Position numbers and translations under genes: made by a program. Source: Nitrospirota bacterium (GTDB taxonomy: Bacteria; Nitrospirota; Thermodesulfovibrionia; Thermodesulfovibrionales; Dissulfurispiraceae). Taken from it: a stretch of 64,000 bases of DNA. Positions 19,202 through 47,542 of the stretch are shown one piece after another. Numbering within the stretch: position 1 is the first letter of the stretch; each line of letters begins with the position of its first letter. Under the pieces are notes generated by a model. The model did not search any database, was not told the origin of the DNA, and saw only the letters and a program-made list of their open reading frames with translations. The stretch lies in assembly GCA_963790025.1 (NCBI GenBank), contig CAWBMP010000002.1:160001-224000 (forward strand). The letters run 5' to 3'.

Positions 19202-19294
19202 TGTTCACGAAAAATAAAGTTGGTAACTGAAAAATAAAGTCGGTAATTAGAAAATAGAGTTGGTAATTGAAAAATAAAGTCGGCAACTGAAAAA
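19202..19294. mobile_element. Tn7-like transposon end: TGT terminus plus four tandem 20-bp putative TnsB-binding sites
   Basis: TGTTCACG, then aaaataaagttggtaactga / aaaataaagtcggtaattag / aaaatagagttggtaattga / aaaataaagtcggcaactga (19211-19290); marks the core-to-accessory boundary. Confidence 0.7.
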
Positions 19295-19431: not shown

Positions 19432-20130
19432 GTAGAGTAGAGAGCTGGCGTAGTAGTCGGAGACCCTATCTCCAGCTCCCCCTCGTCGAACCGGACGGTC
19501 GCTTTTCGCGAATACGGTTCTCCAATCATCTTCTTCCAGAGGCTTTCGCTCTCGCTTGGCCTTCTGGTATAGCTTCCACTAGAAATTCCGGAACTTCTGG
19601 AGTTTATAGCGTTACCGCAATCTCCTTTCCTTTTTTCCTTCAGAAGCGCGATGAAGGCATTGCCCCTTCCCTCTCCCAAAGTTATGTTGTCTTTGAGATG
19701 CAAACGGTACAATATGAGCAACTCCGATTCCCTTGCCGACCCAGTGAAACTTCGTTACCTTATATCCACCAGTTGCTGCTCTCGCAGCATCGTCAAGGGT
19801 CTCCCGTGTTCATTGTCGTATGACTTCCCCTGCGTGTCACCCCTGACACCCCGGGAGTCCATCTATCGGTTACGGTAGTTTTTGTCAGGATAGATGCTAC
19901 GGCCTTCCCCTTTCTGTGACAGGGTCGGCAACTCCGTCTCGTGTTTCGAGGCTACATCTGGGTTCGCTTGCGCTGCAACCCGCAGGTTTGCTCAACTCCC
20001 TTTAGGAGCCTTTGTCAGGAAACTTAGTGCTTCAGGTTACCCTTTACACCTCCCTCAAGCTACGTGGGCGAGCTACCAAACTCCCACGATCGGACTTTAA
20101 CCGATAAGTCATACGTTTTACACGGCATAC
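19432..20130 (-). ncRNA. ORF-less group II intron (699 nt) with internally deleted RT ORF
   Basis: Minus strand: 5' GTATG; domain V gagaaccgtattcgcgaaaagcgaccgtccggttc; domain VI ending ctactctAC; EBS1 loop cacagaaa (19911-19918) is complementary to the 5' exon end tttctgtg (20131-20138). Confidence 0.9.
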
Positions 20131-20396
20131 CACAGAAAAACGCACAGCAGTCATGCCGCCAGGGGCTGCATGTTTCAAATGGAATCCATTTTATTGTAGT
20201 CCCCTCCTCAGAGAGGGTTAGGGGTGGGTTTAGGCCGTGGTCGTATTGTCGTCACTGCGAGCGAAGCTTGGCAATCTCGTCTTTTCCCGATCTCTAGATT
20301 CACGAAATCAAGCCTGACCCGATTTGCTGCATCTATTTGCTCTGACTTACAGACTGCAAGATAGGCAAACTCAATATGGACCCCGAATTACTAATT

Positions 20397-21869
20397 TCAC
20401 CTGGAGTAAAAACTAGGTTTAGGAAAGCCACCCCGGACAACAACAACTACAATTACAATTGGGGACTGTCCGGTCTGATGAACAAAGACCTCAATATCGT
20501 CTTCTACAACACCAACTGGTGCAGATTTCGGTGAGGCTTCGAGTACGGACAACACGCCAACTCGCTTCCCCAGCCCGATTGCATAAGCTGCTGTCTGATC
20601 AAAAAATTTAGAGAGATCCTTAGGAAACAGAACTTTGCTGTTCTCGACTTTCAATTCGATCGGGATATCCCGGAATGTGAGATCAGTGATCCCACCTGCT
20701 GCTTCGGGGTGACCTTGCAAGTGCTCACCAATATCACACCGGTTTCGAAGCATCTCAGTGGCTTTGTTTTGGAATTGCGATTCTGACGTACCAGCCTCGA
20801 ACAAGCCGCCTTTCAAAGCTTGTGCAGCGATGTTGCCCAACCCACCAAGTACTATCATTGTGTTGGCAACATCATCTGAATGCAAACCGGGGAAGCTTCT
20901 CAACTTGTCGCGAACGCTGAGGAGATGTCTATCAACATTTGAAAACCCAGTCAAAGGGTTTTTAGTAACATCACATCCCTCCAAGAGTAGACGGCGATGC
21001 CCTACAATTGCAACATCCTGGCAATTACTCGTGTCGTCGAATTCAGCTGCGTAAAGGAATTCGTATGGCCTTGAGCCGAACGAATGAGCCACCTCCAGAA
21101 CTGCCCGACCGGTGCCAGTAAGAAAGAAAGGGCCATCACCTTCGGGTTTCTCGAACTTGAAACTGGGCAACCAATCCCGCTCGCGTATGTCGATCGTTAC
21201 AGGTGTTAACGAGAGGACACTGGCACCTGTGGGCCAATTTGAAACCCTGACTTCTATCGTAAGGTCGTAAGACATCCCCGGCTTAAGATAGTTCCAGTGT
21301 TTAGCCGGCTCGCCGTCGATATCAAACTTCAAGAACGCTACGGTCGTTTCGGTTTTCTCAGTCTCTGCTGAACTTCCGTTGGAGACAGGAACGCGGAACC
21401 CTCCAAAACCTCGATCCCGAAGATTGGCGAACAAAAGAAGGGGCAGGGTCCATCGTTTCAACTGATCCTGTATGAGGGTCAATTCGTCCACGTTCTTGAG
21501 ACCTTCGACTTGATCCAGAAACGCGTTCAGCCGCTCATCAGCAGCGAAACTCAAAGACTTGTCAAGCTCTGACGCCTTTAGCTTCGCCGAACTCAAGAAC
21601 CTTTGAGCATCTGGTTCAGCATTGCGTACGGCATGCTTCCACTCAGCCAAGAGCACAAAGATGGCAATGGCCCTGTGATATGAGCGGTACTGATCCTCGA
21701 CATCACCTTGACCGATCTCAGAGATTGTTGCTTCAAGCTCCAAACAGGCTCTTTTTAGGCGCTCAAGGTCATGCGGCGAAGGCTTCAGAGCCCCCGCAAG
21801 TGTTGCAGCAACCTCAATCCTCGAAGAAAAAGCTCGGTGGAAAATCTCGAAGTTTGGCTCGTTTCTCAT
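20397..21869 (-). CDS. Hypothetical protein with a C-terminal PD-(D/E)XK nuclease-like domain
   Basis: ESQFQ...GGITDL...IELK...QTAAY motif arrangement; 490 aa. Confidence 0.65.
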   Translation of the reverse strand: MRNEPNFEIFHRAFSSRIEVAATLAGALKPSPHDLERLKRACLELEATISEIGQGDVEDQYRSYHRAIAIFVLLAEWKHAVRNAEPDAQRFLSSAKLKASELDKSLSFAADERLNAFLDQVEGLKNVDELTLIQDQLKRWTLPLLLFANLRDRGFGGFRVPVSNGSSAETEKTETTVAFLKFDIDGEPAKHWNYLKPGMSYDLTIEVRVSNWPTGASVLSLTPVTIDIRERDWLPSFKFEKPEGDGPFFLTGTGRAVLEVAHSFGSRPYEFLYAAEFDDTSNCQDVAIVGHRRLLLEGCDVTKNPLTGFSNVDRHLLSVRDKLRSFPGLHSDDVANTMIVLGGLGNIAAQALKGGLFEAGTSESQFQNKATEMLRNRCDIGEHLQGHPEAAGGITDLTFRDIPIELKVENSKVLFPKDLSKFFDQTAAYAIGLGKRVGVLSVLEASPKSAPVGVVEDDIEVFVHQTGQSPIVIVVVVVRGGFPKPSFYSR

Positions 21870-24381
21870 TTTCTTTCTCCAAGTCAGACAGAAGGCTGCT
21901 CCATTTTTCGATCAACTCGACAAACGCCCCTCCGCCTCCTATTGTGTGTTCAATCTCGGAAGCCGTCGCGACTAAAGCGGTTTCAAGTCGCCACTGTTCA
22001 TTTCGATCTTCTACTGGGATGCTTGCCATCAGTTCCCTAAAACAAGTGCTTGCAGCTGCATGGTTTCCTGCCTTAGTCAAGGCGGCAGCATAAAGAAGCG
22101 CTTCAACAAAGCCTTCTGGCCTGAATGGCCGGAGTGCTTCGAATGCCTTTTTAATTTCGTCTATACAGTTTTGAAGCTCATTGTGTGGGGCTCTTAAGAT
22201 CGCGGACACGCAGTCGTCGGTAGAAATGGAGCGCGTATAGTCATCTTGAATTGACTTCAGCGCCACTTTGGCAAAGCCAGGAACCTCCCCAAAGCCATAG
22301 TGCAACCGATCAACAGCATGGTAAAGGGCACTTCCCTCCAAGCTGAGCAAGATACCCGAGAGCAGCAGGCCGAGTTTCCCTTTTCTTTCTTCAGGCGAAA
22401 GGCAGAGAAACGCAAATGCGTCGATACAGTCGACAACGAAGTCCTCTTGCTTGCTTTGTTGGGAGTAGTAAACAATCAGGCTCCAGAGCCCGTGCTTAAT
22501 AAGGCTTCGTTTCTCTTTAGGAAATGATCTACGCCTCAGAGAATGAACGGCCGACCGATGAACAATGACATATGGGTCAGTAAGCAAGACGGAAAATGCT
22601 TCAAAGAACAGATCGGGAAAGTTCTTCACCAAGTCGTATGGGACATCCCCCCATGCTTGTACAGCGCTGGCACGGATCAATGTGCTCTCGTCCATAAGTG
22701 CACGATACCAATCGGAGAGCACTATCGTTAGGCTTTCGACCCCGGCCAACAATTTTGAAACATGAACTATCATGTTTCCACGCATTTGCGTTTGGTTCTC
22801 GGGCAACTTCCGATACAGTTCTAGGAGCTGTTCAATTCCTTCACGTCCCTTGGATTTTGCTCCAACTGCAGCCCATTCGATCAGTGCGCTCTGCAAGCCG
22901 TCAATTGCTCCGCGTTTGTTCGTTTTATCCATATGAGCGAGCACATCGCCAGTCAGTTCGAGAGAGCGCTCTGTATCTACTTGCTCATACTTCTCGCTAA
23001 GTGTAGCCGCTGCACCGATCAGATTATCAAAATGCTCGACTGCGAGCTGAGCAAACTCGTCCCAAGAATGTCTGAAGAACTGTCCCGCTTCATCCATGCC
23101 GTTCTCTGGGCTTTCTATGGCAGCCCAAAGCAATCTTCTAAATCCTATCCTTTGTGCTGTTCCTATCTGTGCCTTTTCCCGATAGCTGTGTTTCAGCACT
23201 GATCTATAGGTTCTATTAGCTTCTTCTCTTCCGGTATTGTCGTTGTCAGCAAGGAACGATTGGATGATCTTGTCCGTTTCCTCTGGAAAACGTTCGAGGC
23301 ACTTCGAGGCCGCTTCCCGAAGATAGTAGAGTACGCTGCTATCCCGGCGCACTCTCGGAAGCAGAAATCGCCTGCGCATAAGCTTGGCGAAGATACTTTC
23401 AGTATGTCTTGAAAGCAGCTCGTCACTATCCGTCGCAAGTATGATCTCAACGGCATCCCCAATTTTTTCTGGGTTCGCGTTACTTAGAAGTGCGTCGACC
23501 TCCGCACAAATCTGAGCACGCCTTTTCTGGAAGAGCGCGTGAATTGGCGCAGCATCAAGCCTTATTGGTTCGCTTCCTCCAAAATGCACTCCGGGTGGCG
23601 GTCCTAAGGCCATTGACACAAAGGGACGTAAAACCTTTTTCAAGTCGTCTTGGGAAAGCTTTTCCGCCCCCGACAAAACCAGGTCGATAGCCGCTGAAGA
23701 TTTCTCATAGCTGTTCACCAAGCTCACCGCCACTGAAAGCTTTTCTTCTGATTCTAACGGTGCCCTGAGTAATGCCTTCGCGGCAGGTCTAGAATACGGC
23801 AAGTTCTCGTGTAGCACTGCTGGCAAGAGATGTTCGATCACCTTTCTGGTAAATGTCTCAGGAGCAAGGTTTGCGAGTTGCTCCAGACGCGGATCGTTCC
23901 TTTCTATATCTTCCTGATCAAGCTCATCCAACAGATCGAAAACGAAGGTTTCCTCTAGAGAGAGTTCGTAGCGAAGTTTCGCCCGTTCTTGGCGCCTGTC
24001 GGTCTGCTTCTGCTTTCTCTCCCTTTCTTCTTCTTCGCGCGCTTCCTTTAGGTTTTCGGCAGCTTGTTCCCTCGGGTCAACAAAACTCATAATATTAGGA
24101 AATCCTACGGGAACCCGTTCCTCACAACCCTTGCAGTTGTTCTGGTAGAAGTCATAAGCTGCATCTTCCAGCAGCCAACAATACATGGAGTTTTTCTTAG
24201 AGAATTTGCACTGGACGCCCATGTGCCCAATTGGGAGACCAGTTGCAGCTTCAATCATTCCCCTTCCATGAGACCTTACGAACTCGGCATGGAAACACCA
24301 ATTTCTTAGAAGCTTTGTTGTTCGGAGATTGCGCTGGCCTGCTTCTATTGCATTTTTATAGCTGTCTTCAAAATCATCCAT
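21814..24381 (-). CDS. Large helical-repeat (HEAT-like) protein with an N-terminal Cys-rich domain
   Basis: 855 aa; WCFH...QC...C...CKGC cluster, coiled coil, HEAT-like LMDESTLIRASAV and LTDPYVIVHRSAV units. Confidence 0.65.
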   Translation of the reverse strand: MDDFEDSYKNAIEAGQRNLRTTKLLRNWCFHAEFVRSHGRGMIEAATGLPIGHMGVQCKFSKKNSMYCWLLEDAAYDFYQNNCKGCEERVPVGFPNIMSFVDPREQAAENLKEAREEEERERKQKQTDRRQERAKLRYELSLEETFVFDLLDELDQEDIERNDPRLEQLANLAPETFTRKVIEHLLPAVLHENLPYSRPAAKALLRAPLESEEKLSVAVSLVNSYEKSSAAIDLVLSGAEKLSQDDLKKVLRPFVSMALGPPPGVHFGGSEPIRLDAAPIHALFQKRRAQICAEVDALLSNANPEKIGDAVEIILATDSDELLSRHTESIFAKLMRRRFLLPRVRRDSSVLYYLREAASKCLERFPEETDKIIQSFLADNDNTGREEANRTYRSVLKHSYREKAQIGTAQRIGFRRLLWAAIESPENGMDEAGQFFRHSWDEFAQLAVEHFDNLIGAAATLSEKYEQVDTERSLELTGDVLAHMDKTNKRGAIDGLQSALIEWAAVGAKSKGREGIEQLLELYRKLPENQTQMRGNMIVHVSKLLAGVESLTIVLSDWYRALMDESTLIRASAVQAWGDVPYDLVKNFPDLFFEAFSVLLTDPYVIVHRSAVHSLRRRSFPKEKRSLIKHGLWSLIVYYSQQSKQEDFVVDCIDAFAFLCLSPEERKGKLGLLLSGILLSLEGSALYHAVDRLHYGFGEVPGFAKVALKSIQDDYTRSISTDDCVSAILRAPHNELQNCIDEIKKAFEALRPFRPEGFVEALLYAAALTKAGNHAAASTCFRELMASIPVEDRNEQWRLETALVATASEIEHTIGGGGAFVELIEKWSSLLSDLEKENEKRAKLRDFPPSFFFED

Positions 24382-25196
24382 TTTGACTAACCTTCTTGCG
24401 CTTTTTTCAAAAATGCCAGTAGGTAATACGCATTAGCGGCACCCGTAAGAAGAGGAGTTCAGGGTAAGCTCTACTGTTGTTGCTTTGCACCTTTCAGTTG
24501 ACCTTCTTCATTTCTACATAGCCAGTTATTAAGTGATTACCCCGCTAACACCAGGGGATGTTGATTTATGCAAACCCATAAATATTCATGATTTGCTGTA
24601 ACTGTCTGCTTTAATACAATTACTCCCGTGACTAATATTCAACTCCCTACTTCCCTGCCACGAATGTTTGCGAAATAAAATAGTCTATAAACATCGGCGA
24701 GAAAAGTAAAGAGAGTTTATGAGTAGATATCCGGCCGGATTGTGACAGTTATTTTAGGAAACCTCTTCATCTGGCGATATCGCATTAATGCGAAGTATTC
24801 AGGTTACTTTGCCGAGTCAGGTCCTCACAGTACTGTTGAGTTTCGATAAGTCGCAACTCAATGAAGAGTACACGTGGAAATCGTTATGACGGTCGCTGTG
24901 GACCCGCAGGTTGGTATCTATTACGCGCGGATGATAAGGATTTCATTTTTAATGACTTGGTAGCGGACCGCCATATTTAACATTTGGCAGCAATGTCAGG
25001 TCATGAAGAGCCCAAACTACAGCACTCATTTCGAGTTGTCCCAATTCCTTGAGGGTGTCCCACATTACGTCTCCTCCTATATTAGGATAAATACGACGAA
25101 GCTGATTGAAGTTTAATCTGTTTTCCAACTCAAAATTGTTAACTCGAGAAGCAGTAATAAATACAAAAAGCGAACCTATTAAGATACCAACAGTCT

Positions 25197-26243
25197 GTGT
25201 ATTTTTTCTCATGCCACCAAGAGGAGGTGTTGGACCGGCCGGGGAAAGCGCCAATAATTTATGGAAGAAGCAAAAAGGTAGATAAAGCAATAACTGCGGT
25301 AAAGAATATTTTCTTAAAGTTTGGTTGGGAAGGAGATGGGAAAATACGTGTAATTTGGATCCCACCTTTTTTGGATCAATCTAGTGATCCCAATTATGGC
25401 TCCTTTATTTGGCATGTTAAACAATACAATAACGGAACTTCTTTCTTAGGTTTTAAGGAACCTATTCAATCAGCAAGATTATTAGATCAGAATGTGGTTT
25501 TTAAGCAGAATGATAGAGATGTAAAACCCATAAACCTAATATACACGGAAGAAAAAAACTTATTACTGCAACTCAAAAAAAAGAAAAAACTGCTACAAGA
25601 AGTGATAGGGCATGTAGAATCAAATATTTTGAGTAGCGAATTAATAAACTCGACATTGGGTTATATTCAAAATGACGTGATGTCAGAATTCAACGATTTC
25701 ATTGATGAGTGTTATTTGCAGTATTTGGTACACGTCTTAAGCGATAATAATCCTGACTCTATAAAGCTTAAATCTATAAATGTAAGAATTGGCCTTGATC
25801 ACATTTCGGAACAACCTAGCTTTGGAATAGGAGATAATTGGCTAACAATACGTGAAATTATTAGTAACATTTGGAGGGATTTCAAATTCTTGTCGTTTAA
25901 AGACAAGTTTAAGGAGATAATGAACTGTATAGATTTTAAGTATGATGCAAAACAAATAGCAGATATTAATAAACATGTAGTCATAAGGAACTGCATTCAA
26001 CATCATCAATGGGCATTAGCCGCTGATGTCTTAAAAACAATAGGGTTAAATAAAATAGAAATATTGAATGAAAAAGGAAAATATACAACAATCCAAAAAT
26101 GGAACAAAATTGTGCTGACATCTCAAGAAGTTAGCTCTATAATTGATAACCTCGCCCATTTCTGTGTTGAATATGTAAAGCATGTAAAACATAGAATTAA
26201 AACCAGACATTTTTTGCACAACTTTAAAAAAGAAGATTATTAA
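25197..26243 (+). CDS. AT-rich protein: N-terminal GWEGDG/WIPPF/WHVKQ domain fused to a HEPN-like domain (start uncertain)
   Basis: RNCIQH matches the HEPN Rx4H motif in a helical C-terminal half; visibly AT-rich DNA. Confidence 0.6.
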   Translation: MYFFSCHQEEVLDRPGKAPIIYGRSKKVDKAITAVKNIFLKFGWEGDGKIRVIWIPPFLDQSSDPNYGSFIWHVKQYNNGTSFLGFKEPIQSARLLDQNVVFKQNDRDVKPINLIYTEEKNLLLQLKKKKKLLQEVIGHVESNILSSELINSTLGYIQNDVMSEFNDFIDECYLQYLVHVLSDNNPDSIKLKSINVRIGLDHISEQPSFGIGDNWLTIREIISNIWRDFKFLSFKDKFKEIMNCIDFKYDAKQIADINKHVVIRNCIQHHQWALAADVLKTIGLNKIEILNEKGKYTTIQKWNKIVLTSQEVSSIIDNLAHFCVEYVKHVKHRIKTRHFLHNFKKEDY

Positions 26244-32920: not shown

Positions 32921-33082
32921 TGTTAATCGGCGTCGAATTCTGACCCATATATACACTTAATTTAGACTCAGAGCAATTTGCCATTGTATCTTTGATTTTA
33001 GGACATTGGTTACACATAGGGGGGATCAACACTCGACGCCGAAAAGTGCCAAAAGTGGGTCAGGATCAGATGCCGATTAACA
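32921..33082. mobile_element. IS21-family-like MITE (162 bp)
   Basis: Terminal IRs TGTTAATCGGCgtcgaattcTGACCCA ... TGGGTCAggatcagatGCCGATTAACA; no transposase. Confidence 0.8.
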
Positions 33083-41001: not shown

Positions 41002-42483
41002 TCACTCACCCGCCCCTCCGCCGAGCACCTTGTAGAGCGTCACCAGATTGGTGAGACGGGAGAGGTGAACAGCAATCAGTCCTTGCTGCGCGCCGTAAAG
41101 GGAGCGCTGAGAGTCAAGGACATCCAGATAGCTCGATATGCCTTTGCTGTAACGCGCCTGGGATAAACGATAAGTTGCGGCGGTGGCATCCGTTAGAGCC
41201 TGCTGGGCCTCCAGTTGAGCGCCGAGCGTACCATGTTGAGCAAGGGCGTCCACCACTTCCCTGAAGGCGCTCTGGATCGCCTTCTCATATTGGGCAAGAA
41301 AGATTTCGCGGTCGACTTTTGACACTTTCAGATTGGCCTTGTTTCGCCCTGCATCGAAGATGGGCAAAGTGATCTGCGGCGCGAAGCTCCATACGCCGGA
41401 TCCTCCCTTGAAGAGTCCGGTCAACTCAGCGCTTGAGAGGCCAAGGCTGCTCGTGAGAGTTATGCGCGGGAAGAATGCGGCGCGTGCCGCGCCGATGTCG
41501 GCGTTGGCAGCCTTGAGAAGGTGCTCCGCCTGCATGATATCGGGCCGGCGCTGCAGCACATCGGAAGGCAGGCCCGGGCTGAGATCTTTAAGTGCGGTAA
41601 TTGCACTGAGCCCGGACGGCAGGAGATCCGGCGGTACCGCCGAGCCTATCACGAGAGTCAGCGCGTTTTCGTCCTGGGCTACCCGGCTCGTAAAAGCAGC
41701 AATGTCCACCCGTGCTGTATCAACACTCGTCTCGGCTTGACGGACATCCAACTCCGACGAGGCGCCTGCTTTGAAGCGACTATTAATAAGGTTGTATGAA
41801 GCCTGCTGGCTTTCGAATGTCTGCTGAGCGATTTTCAGATGCTCTTCATCAGCCGCAAGGGTCAGGTAGTCGCTTGCTACCTCAGCCACAAGGCTGATCT
41901 GCGCGCTGCGGCGCACCTCCGCGGTGGCGAAGAACTGCTCCAGCGCCTGTTCTTTAAGGCTTCGTACCCTGCCGAACAGATCGAGCTCGTAGCCGCTGAA
42001 ACCGAGACCGACACTGTATTGATGTGATGCGACCACTTGGCCGGTTGTAGAGAGGCTTGCAGGTATTCGTTGGTCGAGGCCGGCGCCGGCCGCAACCACC
42101 GTTGGAAAGAGATCGGCGCGCTGGATTCGATAAACCGCCTGAGACCTTTCTACATTGAGTGCCGCTATCCGCAGATCCCGGTTGTTGTTCAGTGCGAGTG
42201 CAATCAACTTTTGCAGTTGTTCGTTAACAAAAAACTCCTGCCATTTAATGTCGGCAACGGCCTTACCGGTCGGCTTGACTTCGCCTTGCTTATAAGCAGG
42301 ACCGCTCGGCCACCCGGCCGGGACAGGCGCTTCCGGCCGCGTATATTCAGGAATCATTGTGCAGCCCGAAAGAGCAAATAGAACAAGACCAATAGTTACA
42401 CTGCGGAATACAAAGCATTCCGAGCGTGAATGGTCGGCGGCTTGATGGCTCGGAGGCTTATCGGCGATGAAAAGTCTTTTCAT
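41002..42483 (-). CDS. RND outer-membrane lipoprotein (OprM/NodT family)
   Basis: LSGC lipobox, [27 protein letters not shown]. Confidence 0.92.
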
Positions 42484-42484
42484 T

Positions 42485-45400
42485 TCACTCCTCCGCAACA
42501 GCAGTGCCGACAGCTGGCGCCGTCACGTGTGCTTTGTATTTTTCACGACCCAACAAGCGCGATACCATCACGAAGAAGAATGGAATGAAGATCAGGTCGA
42601 TAAAGGTGGCAGAGAGGAGTCCGCCCGTTACGGCCGTGCCTATCGCGTTCTGGGCCCCGGCGCCGGCCCCCTTGGTCAGCGCGAGCGGCAACGTGCCGAA
42701 GAAGAAGGCAAGGGAAGTCATGAGAACCGGACGGAGTCTGATTTTCACGGCGTTCAACGTCGCCTCCACAAGTTCGTGCCCCTGGAGCATCTGTTCCTTG
42801 ATGAACTGGATGATCAGGATGGCGTTCTTGGTCGAAAGCCCGACTGTCGTAAGCAGACCGATCTGGAGATAAACGTCATTGGGAAGGCCGCGGAGCGTAA
42901 CCATGCTGACAGCGCCAACCAGACCGAGCGGCAGCATCAGCATATTCACAAAAGGAATCGTCCAGCTTTCATACAATGCTGCAACCGCGAGAAAGACAAC
43001 GAGGAGGGAGATTGCATAAAGCGCAGGCGCCTGCTCACCGGCATTCTTTTCCTCGTACGAAAGGCCGGTCCATTCGTATCCGATTCCTGGCGGGAGCTGA
43101 GCCGCCATCTTCTCCATCTCGGCCATTGCCTCGCCTGTGCTTACACCTGGAACGGCCTGCCCCAGGATCTCGACCGACGGGAGGCCGTTGTAACGCTCAA
43201 GGCGGGGCGAGCCGTACTGCCAGCGGGCTGTAGCAAAGGCGGAGAACGGCACCATCTGGCCGTCTTTGTTGCTGACGTACCAGCTGTTGATGTCCTCCGG
43301 CAGCATCCGGTAGCGTGGATCGGACTGGAGATAGACCTTCTTCACCCGGCCGTCCTGGATGAAGTTGTTAACGTAGGTGCTCCCCCATGCGGCAGAGAGA
43401 ACGTCGTTGATATTACTCAACGAGACCCCGAGCGCACCGGCCCTTACGTCATCGATATCCAGCTTGAACTGGGGAGAATCGTCCTGGCCATTGGGGCGCA
43501 CCGCAGTCAGTTTCGGATCCTTCATTGCCATGCCGAGCAGTTGGTTGCGCGCCTCCATCAGCTTCTCGTGCCCTACCCCTCCCCGATCCTGCAACTGGAA
43601 GTCGAAGCCGTTGGCCACCCCCAACTCAAGCACCGCCGGCGGGGCAAAGGCAAAGGCGATGCCGTCACGGATTTGCGAGAACGCCTTCATCGCCCGCGCC
43701 GCAATGGCAGGGGCCTTCAGGTCCGGGGTTTTGCGCACATTCCAGTCCTTGAGCCTCACCCATGCGAGCCCCATGTTCTGCCCGCGGCCGGCAAAGCTGA
43801 ACCCGGACACGGTGATAATCCCCTCCACCGTCTTCTTCTCGTCCTCCAGGAAGTGGCGCTCCATCTGTTTCAGGGACTGCAGCGTTCGTTCCACGGTGGC
43901 GCCGGGGGGGAGCTGTATCTGGCAGAGCAGGAATCCCTGGTCCTCGTCCGGCAGGAACGAGGTGGGGAGGTTGTGGAAGAAGTACCCCATCGCGACCACG
44001 ATAGCGCCGTAAACCACCAGGTAGCGCACCGGCTTTCCAAAGGAACGGCCGACGATCCCTTCGTATTTGCCCCGGCAGAAGTCGAATCCCCGATTGAAAT
44101 AACGGAAAAACCAGGCAAGCCAGCCGGTCTCGCCGGCATGTTGTCCCTTTGCGACAGGCTTCAGGATAGTGGCGCATAGGGCCGGGGTCAGGATCTGGGC
44201 CACCAGCACTGACAGGATCATGGCCGAGATTATAGTGATGGAGAATTGGCGATAGATGACGCCAGTAGAACCGCCGAAGAACGCCATCGGGAGGAAGACC
44301 GCCGAAAGGACGGTGGCGATCCCCCACAGGGCGCTGGTTATCTGTCCCATGGACTTGATGGTAGCGTCACGGGGGGAGAGCCCCTCCTCGGTCATGATCC
44401 TCTCCACGTTCTCAACCACCACGATGGCGTCGTCCACCAGGAGGCCGATGACGATGACTAGGGCGAACATGGTAAGGGTGTTGATGGAGAACCCGCTGGC
44501 AGCCAGCACTCCCATGGTTCCCAGGAGTACCACCGGCACGGCGATGGTCGGTATAAAGGTAGCCCGGATGTTCTGCAGGAACAAGAACATGATGATAAAT
44601 ACCAGGCAGATAGCCTCCAACAGCGTGTGTACCACTTCTTCAATGGAAATCTTCACGAAGGGGGTGGAATCGTAGGGATAGACTACCTTCATTGCTGGCG
44701 GGAAGTACTTTGAGAGTTCCGCCATCTTAGCCTTAACCCGGTTTGCGGTATCCAGGGCGTTGGCCCCGGCCGCCAGCCGGAGCGCCACTCCCCCCATCGG
44801 CTTCCCATTGTAGAACGACTGAATGTCGTAATTTTCGGTGCCGATCTTGCACTCAGCCACATCCCTAACTTTTACGGTAGAGCCGTCGGTGTTGGTGCGA
44901 AGGATGACATTATTGAACTGATCGGGCGTCTGCAGCAAGGTGCGGGCCGTGATCGTAGCATTCAGTTGCTGCCCTTTGACGGCAGGAGTCCCGCCGAACT
45001 GGCCGGCCGATACCTGGACATTCTGGGACTGCAGGGCACTTATAACGTCATTCGTGGTCAGATGGTAGTTGTTGAGCTTCGCCGGGTCGAGCCATATCCT
45101 CATGGCGTTCTGGGTGCCGAACACCAACACTTCGCCTACCCCGTCCAGGCGGCTGATGGTATCCTGAATATTCGAAACCATGTAGTCGGTCAGGGTATTG
45201 CGGTCCATGGAGCCATCTTCCGAAACCAGACCCACGATCAGCATGTAGTTCCGGCCGGACTTGACCACCTGAATCCCCTGCTGCTGCACGATCTGGGGGA
45301 GAAGCGGCATGGCCAGCTGGAGCTTATTCTGCACCTGCACCTGGGCGATGTTCGGGTCAGTCCCCGCCTTGAAGGTCAGAGCGATGCTAACCGCCCCGGC

Positions 45401-45652
45401 CGAGTCGCTCGTGGAGGCCATGTAGATCATGTTATCGATACCATTCAGCTTCTGTTCGATCACTTGGGTGACCGTATCCTGCGCCGTCTGCGCCGAGGCG
45501 CCCGGATAGGTTGCGTTAATGGCAATCTGGGGCGGTGCGATGGGGGGGTACTGAGAAACCGGCAGTGTTTTGATCGACAGGAGGCCCGCCAGCATGACCA
45601 TGATGGCGATTACCCATGCAAAGATAGGACGATTTATAAAGAATCTGGACAT
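42485..45652 (-). CDS. acrB: RND efflux permease, HAE1 (AcrB/MexB-like)
   Basis: [42 protein letters not shown]; 1055 aa. Confidence 0.95.
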
Positions 45653-45662
45653 GAACTCTCCT

Positions 45663-46886
45663 TTACTTCTTTGCTTCCGCCGTCTTCACCGGGCCTGCAG
45701 GCGAGCTGTCTACCTTACTCGCGAACGTAACGGCCTTTACGGGCATTCCCGAACGCACCCTTTGAATTCCTTCGAGGATAACCCGGTCGCCTGTTTTAAG
45801 TCCGTCGCTGACCAGCCAGCAGTCGCCGACTGTACGGACGACCTTTATGGCGCGCGGCTCCGCCTTTTCTTCGCTTTCTACTACCGTAACCATTGGGTCT
45901 CCGGCAGGGTTGCGTGTCACCCCTCTCTGAGGAACAAGAATCGCATGTTCATTGACCCCTTCCTCTATGACCGCGCGGACGAACATCCCCGGAAGCAGGG
46001 TCTGCTTTGGGTTCGGGAAGACCGCGCGCAGTGTTATGGAGCCGGTACTTTGGTCAACCGTAACTTCAGAAAACTTGAGCGTTCCGGTCAGCGGATACAT
46101 ACTGCCGTCCTCCAGCAAAAGCTTCACCCGGGTCTGCGCTGCGCCACTGCTTTTCATAAGGCCGCTGGCCATGTCCTGTTTCAGGTGGAGCAGGTCTGCG
46201 CTGGACTGGGTGACATCAACATATATGGGACTGAGCTGCTGGATCGTGGCCAGCGCGGCGGGCTGACTTGCCGTTACGAGAGCGCCATTGGTCACTGATG
46301 ACCGGCCTATCCGTCCTGAGATGGGTGCAGTTACCTTCGTATATGCCAGGTTTATCCGCGCGGATTCGAGCGCTGCCTTTCCTGCCTCTACATCGGCCTC
46401 AGCCTGCTTGACCGCTGCACTTGCATCATCGTAGTCCTGCTGACTGACCGCGTTGATTTCGACGAGATCTTTATAGCGCTCGGCCTTAAGCCGGGCCGGC
46501 ACGAGATTGGCTTCAACTTTATCAAGTGCGGCCTTTGCACTGTTGAAAGATGCCTGGTACGTGGCCGGATCTATCTGATAGAGCACCTCTCCCGCCTTGA
46601 CATCAGCACCTTCGGTAAACAGTCGCTGTTTGATAATGCCGCTTACCTGTGGTCTCACCTCGGCTATAAGGTATGCAGATGTCCGGCCCGCAAGCTCTGT
46701 TGAAAGCGCCACGCGCTGAGGCCTCACCACAACAACGCTTACCTCGGGAGGTGCGCTCGGCGTCTTTGCGATTGCAGTACTCCGTTTTGCGCATCCTGCA
46801 ATTAAAAGAAATGTGGCAAGTATCCCGGTGACAGCAATTATGCCAGATTTCCTCTTGCTCAGTACAAGAATCTCCAAAAGCGTCAT
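45663..46886 (-). CDS. acrA: RND periplasmic adaptor (AcrA/MexA-like)
   Basis: IAGC lipobox, [28 protein letters not shown]. Confidence 0.93.
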
Positions 46887-46930
46887 GTCAACTTCCTCCA
46901 TATGTGAGACATACGTAACAACGTAATAAG

Positions 46931-47542
46931 TTACTTCAGGTACCCTTTAAGCAAACATTCAACCAGAGCAGCAGCTAACACATTCCGATCCGCCCATGGA
47001 AAACTTTTTCTGTACATTGTCATCAGGATCAGACCCTGAACTGCTACAGCAAGAGACTGCGTCATCACATCTGTATCCATCGCCTGAAGCCTGCCTGCAT
47101 CAATGCAATCCTGTACAATTTCTCTGAATATGAAATATGAATTTCGTGCCATGGACTCCTTTCCCATGAATTCTTCCTGTTTGCCATAAACATCGGGTCT
47201 CGTGAAGAAAAATACTTTATATTGGTGCGGGTTATTGAATCCGAATTCTATAAAATAGAGTAAAGCTTGACGAAGGGTATTAAGAGGATCGGTGTAACGC
47301 GCTCTTATATGTTTGAGATTTGCAAGATATTGTTCAGCAACTTCTTCACATATAGCTAATAGCAAATCGTCCTTGTCTTTGAAATAAAGATAGATGGTGG
47401 TAGGTGAATAGTCTATTTTTTCGGCGAGCTTACGCATAGAGAAGTTTTCATAGCCCTCAGCTATAAAAAGTTCGCGGGCCTCATCCAGAATCTCCCGACG
47501 GAATTCCTCCCTGTACTTGGTCCTCTTTTCTTTGACTCCCAT
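46931..47542 (-). CDS. TetR/AcrR family transcriptional regulator
   Basis: GYENFSMRKLA...YSPTTIYLYFKDK helix-turn-helix. Confidence 0.93.
   Translation of the reverse strand: MGVKEKRTKYREEFRREILDEARELFIAEGYENFSMRKLAEKIDYSPTTIYLYFKDKDDLLLAICEEVAEQYLANLKHIRARYTDPLNTLRQALLYFIEFGFNNPHQYKVFFFTRPDVYGKQEEFMGKESMARNSYFIFREIVQDCIDAGRLQAMDTDVMTQSLAVAVQGLILMTMYRKSFPWADRNVLAAALVECLLKGYLK

Follow-up and report, generated by a model that had tools for sequence, protein, structure and literature searches.

The window analysed here is a 64,000-nucleotide stretch of the genome of a Nitrospirota bacterium (contig CAWBMP010000002.1, positions 160,001 to 224,000). It carries a pair of genes that, as far as sequence can tell, is an intact copy of the anti-phage system Olokun, that is, a new member of an already named system and not a new system. 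The genes, oloA (21814..24381) and oloB (20397..21869), both lie on the minus strand, encode proteins of 855 amino acids (96.9 kDa) and 490 amino acids (54.2 kDa), respectively, and overlap by 56 nucleotides, the start of oloB lying within oloA. That the pair constitutes an Olokun-family anti-phage nuclease complex has, in our estimate, a probability of about 0.9; the comparison with Olokun was made through profile models. As part of the explanation that we consider best, we propose that this copy was acquired horizontally. A first-pass annotation of the same DNA had given two co-oriented, overlapping open reading frames (ORFs) of just these lengths and positions, and had correctly seen in them a two-gene anti-phage pair free of a nucleoside triphosphatase (NTPase), in which a HEAT-repeat protein is accompanied by a PD-(D/E)XK nuclease. 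Its statement that the pair could not be assigned to a named system did not hold, as the pair covers 95-99% of the two Olokun models in PADLOC.

The identity of each gene was read from the ORF call, from PADLOC profiles and from a structure model, with Foldseek added for OloA. The 855-residue protein matched the PADLOC OloA model (PDLC03925) with an E value of 4.1e-73 and 245.6 bits, its residues 21-853 aligning with positions 11-577 of the 596 in the model, a coverage of 97% for the protein and 95% for the model; no other PADLOC model was matched by this protein at E values up to 1. The 490-residue protein matched the OloB model (PDLC03926) with an E value of 3.6e-56 and 189.4 bits, residues 8-490 aligning with model positions 2-551 of 556. 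All 48 relatives scanned, chosen so as to represent the ranked lists between about 70% identity and their most distant entries, also matched the OloA profile, the best of them with 232.6 bits against the 245.6 of the window protein. Both genes are single-copy in the source genome, and their G+C content (0.49 and 0.50) compares with 0.47-0.48 for the genome. Searches of Pfam (E up to 0.01), NCBIfam and PDB sequences returned no meaningful match for either protein, and the homologues in E. coli are labelled hypothetical in RefSeq. A scan for promoters and terminators at the locus gave counts no higher than chance.

Hochhauser et al. (2023, PMC10121019) attribute Olokun to Millman et al. (2022, Cell Host Microbe); the accessible text of the preprint of Millman et al. 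(bioRxiv 10.1101/2022.05.11.491447), figures excluded, does not contain the word, and two reviews name the system in lists in the portions at hand (PMC12926258, PMC13223576). The only biochemical study that we found (bioRxiv 10.1101/2025.07.10.664194) describes, in its accessible passages, a 2:2 OloA-OloB complex of about 278 kDa for PfOlokun. In vitro, this complex degraded T7, SECphi17 and SPO1 DNA and left the DNA of the E. coli chromosome and of a plasmid undegraded, the plasmid being merely nicked, with activity at 1 uM only. The same passages list Olokun among the PD-(D/E)XK systems, term OloA adaptin-like and leave Olokun out of the list of systems with a Walker A motif. The word zinc does not occur in the accessible main text, and the passages on Olokun make no mention of a Cys4 domain, of fusions or of attC-bounded copies. 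Our pair resembles Olokun in having two genes, A before B, adjacent and co-oriented, with full-length profile matches in both; its A protein is adaptin- or HEAT-like and lacks a Walker A motif, and its B protein joins a helical N-terminal domain to a predicted PD-(D/E)XK nuclease. The two differ in the mass of the 2:2 complex, predicted at 302 kDa here and measured at 278 kDa for PfOlokun.

According to an AlphaFold2 model (mean predicted local distance difference test score, pLDDT, of 81; predicted template modelling score 0.66; residues 1-101 mostly below a pLDDT of 50), OloA is all-helical, with an N-terminal Cys4 domain, a long helix at residues 97-137 and then a HEAT-like solenoid. The model thus agrees with the coiled coil and HEAT-like repeats suggested at first reading. 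The best Foldseek matches were the HEAT solenoids CAND1, Kap121 and PP2A A, at E values of about 5e-6 to 1e-5 and template modelling scores of 0.2-0.3; with scores this low, the matches indicate the type of repeat and not kinship. No Walker A pattern occurs in either window protein or in any of 97 full-length distant OloA relatives, which extends an absence already noted for the 855-residue protein.

When the window OloA was aligned with 97 full-length representatives (20-52% identity), the best conserved stretch proved to be the first 100 residues, with a second conserved patch at 555-620. Cysteines C29, C58, C83 and C86, a putative zinc site, are present in 98 of 98 sequences; their codons span 24124..24297 on the minus strand, as located from the alignment and counted from the ORF start. 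Other cysteines and histidines of the N-terminal region are variable in the same alignment (H31 in 84% of sequences, H53 in 64%, C68 in 12% and H38 in 1%), so that what had been called a Cys/His cluster survives as a Cys4 cluster only. Because the four cysteines are invariant, we infer that the Cys4 domain very probably binds zinc. That it acts in sensing is a more doubtful proposition. A search of the ESM Atlas with residues 1-110 was uninformative (best score 0.78).

The OloB model is of low confidence (pLDDT 58) and places a helical region at residues 7-139, a beta-rich region at 178-277, helices at 310-353 and an alpha/beta domain at 363-479, in line with the helical N-terminus and beta-rich middle of the first-pass annotation. 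Residues E363, D396, E405, K407, Q425 and Y429 form the predicted catalytic set (codons E363 to Y429 at 20583..20783, minus strand, from the alignment). Each is retained by all 13 sequences in the alignment (28-76% identity), eight of which are C-terminal halves of fusion proteins at 28-33% identity, and the E..D..ELK..Q...Y nuclease-like signature proposed earlier is thereby upheld. The pattern is that predicted for a PD-(D/E)XK nuclease with an intact active site, Q425 and Y429 lying on what we take to be the QxxxY helix.

The coupling of the two genes, offered earlier as a check on the pair, is borne out: oloB lies directly 3' of oloA in 22 of 25 related loci, found at 57-87% identity in records whose titles name several phyla. 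Moreover, eight of 149 distant representatives (clustered at 50%) are single-chain OloA-OloB fusions of 1311-1330 amino acids (P0257, P0267, P0268, P0329, P0353, P0360, P0363 and P0371), and these are all the proteins longer than 1200 amino acids in that set. The nuclease residues are intact in all eight, and the three fusions tested against PADLOC matched both the OloA and the OloB model. For both genes, dN/dS (the ratio of nonsynonymous to synonymous substitution) was about 0.15-0.22 against each of three relatives compared; both are under purifying selection. The distribution is patchy: oloB was found in 2 of 68 genomes of the host family, DNA matches to the clade in 8 of 5426 E. coli genomes, and in the one that we opened the two products are 66% and 70% identical to those of the window, the genes show the same 56-nucleotide overlap and the copy adjoins an integrase. 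Among 72,556 plasmid records there were three partial OloB matches, none of which covers 80%.

Several observations weigh against assigning the pair to Olokun or reading it as a defence nuclease. OloA has no Pfam match at E values up to 0.01, and hence none to Adaptin_N, presumably the Pfam label for Olokun OloA. The window protein, at 855 residues, is well beyond the 596 positions of the OloA model, perhaps because members are shorter or columns were trimmed; taken with the masses of 302 and 278 kDa given above, this suggests that the tested form of Olokun may be somewhat shorter. Fold searches with OloB by VIA-align and Foldseek yielded no nuclease: the VIA-align rows were taken up by the N-terminal helical bundle, a common arrangement (best Z 10.5), and Foldseek gave no match at E values up to 0.001, so that the nuclease fold is without structural confirmation and the structural check suggested earlier succeeded for the HEAT repeats of OloA only. 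The ESM Atlas clusters nearest to OloB are unnamed, PDDEXK_9 clusters appearing only at 0.77-0.79. Of the three loci lacking oloB, one (L008) stops at a contig edge and two (L021 and L028) hold a partial oloA only; a further locus (L027), counted among the 22, is broken in both genes. Cleavage in vitro matches defence in vivo only partly, according to the accessible passages of the biochemical study (10.1101/2025.07.10.664194). Nine other ORFs near the pair in the window gave no real PADLOC match (best E 0.013). Finally, we compared up to three ORFs on each side of the pair in the 22 loci, the three loci without oloB being left out, with 20 evenly spaced control blocks, all drawn from the source genome. 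At the preset E value of up to 1e-10, defence neighbours occurred in 11 of 22 loci and 8 of 20 blocks, which gives no clear separation by block; counted by protein, 23 of 121 and 9 of 120, respectively, had a defence match. Enrichment in defence islands, another check proposed at the outset, is thus not clear by block at the preset threshold. It does speak for the assignment at E up to 1e-50, a cut-off picked after the data had been seen, where strong matches (to type I restriction-modification, GajB, PD-Lambda-5, Dsr1 and PDC models) were found in 8 of 22 loci and 0 of 20 blocks.

The mechanism that we propose would run as follows. oloA and oloB would be co-translated by way of their 56-nucleotide overlap, and their products would form one complex. 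By analogy with PfOlokun, and with indirect support from the natural fusions, this may be an OloA2-OloB2 assembly in which the HEAT solenoid of OloA grips the helical N-terminal domain of OloB, bringing two PD-(D/E)XK domains together to cut DNA with no NTPase step. OloA would restrain OloB on host DNA, licensing it for phage DNA or in response to a cue from the phage, and the Cys4 domain would serve as a zinc-bound structural or sensing module. We lean slightly towards such gating, with defence consisting mainly in the destruction of the incoming genome. The scheme builds on the family membership, gene coupling, conserved catalytic residues and purifying selection observed here; the complex and its DNA preference are borrowed from another Olokun member, and how the nuclease is gated and triggered, and what Cys4 does, is our inference.

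The main rival, which follows the idea of the first-pass annotation, concerns the last step. The OloA solenoid would bind a phage protein and activate OloB, host and phage DNA would both be degraded and the cell would die. We rate such abortive infection as a serious contender of lower probability. On its side stands a secondary PADLOC match of OloB residues 356-489 to LmuA (PDLC03853; E 1.8e-9), the Lamassu effector, whose nuclease domain they resemble. The likeness to Lamassu stops there, as the partner protein in our pair lacks a Walker A motif and matches OloA only, and there is no PADLOC match to the SMC-like LmuB or to LmuC. HEAT and TPR solenoids sense phage proteins in Avs systems, which speaks for the same rival. 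Avs (AVAST) systems share with the pair a helical-repeat module and a nuclease effector; here, however, there is no STAND NTPase, and repeat module and nuclease are encoded by separate genes. Effectors of the LmuA kind have been tied to abortive infection by Millman et al., in the accessible text of their preprint (10.1101/2022.05.11.491447). In contrast, purified PfOlokun cut T7, SECphi17 and SPO1 DNA in the absence of phage proteins and left E. coli DNA alone, according to the available passages of the biochemical study, which speaks against abortive infection.

The flanks of the pair carry a trace of its possible origin. A 5' leader (24382..24513, minus strand) is common to related copies, blastn similarity to L010 and L027 reaching 24513 and the alignment including L007 as well, and a 3' trailer (20329..20396, minus strand) is shared with L010 by blastn and alignment, with no attC-like site after it in the window. 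The leader similarity to L010 ends at the edge of the attC-like site of L010. From this alignment it is suggested that the window copy may descend from an integron cassette. attC-like sites stand on both sides of the pair in L007 and L010 (2 of 22 loci) and upstream only in L011 and L018; an upstream site thus occurred in 4 of 22 loci against a background of 4 in 1000 under the looser of two heuristics, which was written after the flanks had been viewed and misses a downstream site in L018 that is visible by eye. The stricter heuristic yielded a single site across the 22 loci and no locus bounded by sites at both ends, and neither found an attC site in the window. The attC-flanked pair lies at about 7790-12080 in L007 and about 7800-12200 in L010, and the upstream site precedes 8001 in L011 and L018; the two-gene cassette measures about 4.3 kb. 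The integrase IntI (TIGR02249) was found in two of five genomes, those of L007 and L010, with no match in those of L011 and L018 or in the source genome. Defence cassettes in integrons are known (10.1101/2024.07.02.601719, as far as its accessible part goes). A bolder combined reading, in which Cys4, which has no match to any family, is a new zinc-binding module that recognises a cue from the phage, either a DNA structure or a protein, and sets the paired OloB nucleases free, while the clade also travels as a two-gene integron cassette of about 4.3 kb with the window copy as a decayed descendant, seems to us improbable as a whole. If true, it would make Olokun an NTPase-free, zinc-finger/HEAT-gated nuclease.

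The first-pass annotation had placed the pair as the first cargo inside a Tn7-like end. The end is real: a solo Tn7-like (TnsB-family) transposon end, given here as context, lies at 19202..19290 on the plus strand, 5 bp past the trmJ stop codon and 1.1 kb from oloB, with an 8-bp terminus beginning TGT and four sites spaced 20 nucleotides apart, and a TGT terminus with tandem TnsB-type sites is the architecture of Tn7 ends. The rest of the claim found no support. At the scores used, no clustered or TGT-led minus-strand site that could form a second, inverted end was found in the window or in the rest of the contig (C2), where a very divergent end could escape, and no partner end turned up in the source genome. 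A look-alike at C2:239297 was rejected, being a single site in the same orientation inside a 500-residue ORF. Models for TniQ (PF06527), the Mu-transposase C domain (PF09299) and TnsA (PF08722) had no match in the source genome, which is 98.8% complete, in a search whose built-in controls were also silent and which did not extend to tnsC; the TniQ model did match in 5 of 41 genomes. A group II intron of 699 nucleotides that contains no ORF stands between the end and oloB, again as context (19432..20130, minus strand; Rfam RF02005, 72.6 bits at 19839-20098; ends placed by eye), single-copy in the genome by blastn. By eye, its exon-binding site 1 loop pairs at six of six positions with the terminal hexanucleotide of the 5' exon, where a terminator-like hairpin ends. 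Short palindromic stretches, which we take to be of the repetitive extragenic palindrome type, were seen at 20180-20330 between the intron and oloB.

Delivery of the pair as cargo of a Tn7-like transposon inserted at trmJ accordingly appears unlikely to us, and three observations speak for it: the clear end close to oloB, the 62.5-kb interval between trmJ and an M16 peptidase gene, which varies among relatives, and the recurrence of ends behind trmJ. With a weight matrix built from the window end and that of L036, the first end site was placed 53-56 nucleotides past one fixed codon of trmJ in 10 of the 30 loci scanned in the family (L044-L073; 19197-19290 in the window), or 8 of 28 without the two training loci, with one further locus at 159 nucleotides, against 4 of 3000 random windows. 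This constant spacing makes trmJ look like a site at which TniQ/TnsD-guided elements attach. The spacing holds regardless of the position of the stop codon, and a second type of end was seen by eye at trmJ in L034 and L035. Against cargo delivery stand the failure to find a partner end or tns genes, the leader, whose alignment with attC-bounded copies runs as far as the edge of attC, and the distribution of oloB, which occurs in 2 of 68 genomes of the host family and at trmJ in no other genome of the 68; in the second, same-genus genome (G008), the pair and trmJ are on separate contigs. No element with tns genes could be tied to the trmJ ends, TniQ-bearing elements in relatives being on other contigs or far off. 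A same-genus genome does hold a tnsB-tnsC-tniQ cluster with a 636-residue TniQ protein bearing added HTH_17 domains (L038:3152-5059), and also has a trmJ end on another small contig. Our literature search found no publication joining Tn7-like elements and TniQ with trmJ, or Tn7-like elements and a TnsD attachment site with an RNA methyltransferase.

Much less probable still is a toxin-antitoxin-like pair, in which a labile OloA would hold a toxic OloB and defence would follow when host shut-off by a phage depletes OloA. The upstream position of the partner gene and the tight overlap would suit it, as would the attC-bounded copies in L007 and L010, integron arrays often carrying toxin-antitoxin cassettes, and the 2 of 25 loci with a partial oloA and no oloB. 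A labile-antitoxin design would, however, poorly tolerate the fusion of both halves seen in 8 of 149 representatives, and the purified PfOlokun complex is itself active in the passages available to us. Least probable of all, and very nearly dismissed, is a distinct unnamed system merely sharing domains with Olokun, which could appeal to the short OloA model and to the lack of Pfam, NCBIfam, PDB and informative RefSeq matches, yet the two Olokun models are matched along their whole length by both genes, with the gene order kept, and none of the 49 family members scanned scores higher than the window OloA, itself one of them.

The surroundings of the pair add some observations of their own. No DNA methyltransferase was found among the neighbouring ORFs scanned, as had been stated before; at a distance of 1.2 kb, the RNA methylase TrmJ/SpoU is the closest methyltransferase. 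A 348-residue ORF beside the pair (25197-26243, plus strand) was considered as a third component and rejected, since a homologue was present in 0 of 26 related loci. It is AT-rich (G+C 0.33) and has a conserved N-terminal domain, a HEPN-like motif, R264-N-C-x-Q-H-H, that 33-34 of 35 aligned sequences retain, relatives about 14 amino acids longer at the N-terminus, and no Pfam, NCBIfam or real PADLOC match; it is possibly a stand-alone RNase-type defence or toxin gene. Elsewhere, a 162-bp element at 32921-33082, bounded by inverted ends of 27 bp (TGT at the start, ACA at the close), cuts across the end of a TauE-like ORF region and resembles a miniature inverted-repeat transposable element. A block of high G+C content (0.55-0.59) at 41002-47542, within the variable trmJ-M16 region, encodes a TetR protein and RND efflux components.

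Olokun already has a name, PADLOC models and in vitro work behind it, and the pair counts for little as a discovery. The family keeps looking new because Pfam, NCBIfam and RefSeq leave it unnamed. What our analysis adds is modest: the Cys4 domain, the fusions and the cassette form. These offer handles on the question of what triggers Olokun, namely four invariant cysteines to mutate and a clade with E. coli members of 66-70% identity, to which the evidence that some copies are integron cassettes adds another. The natural single-chain fusions, in turn, would ease purification and structural work on the family.

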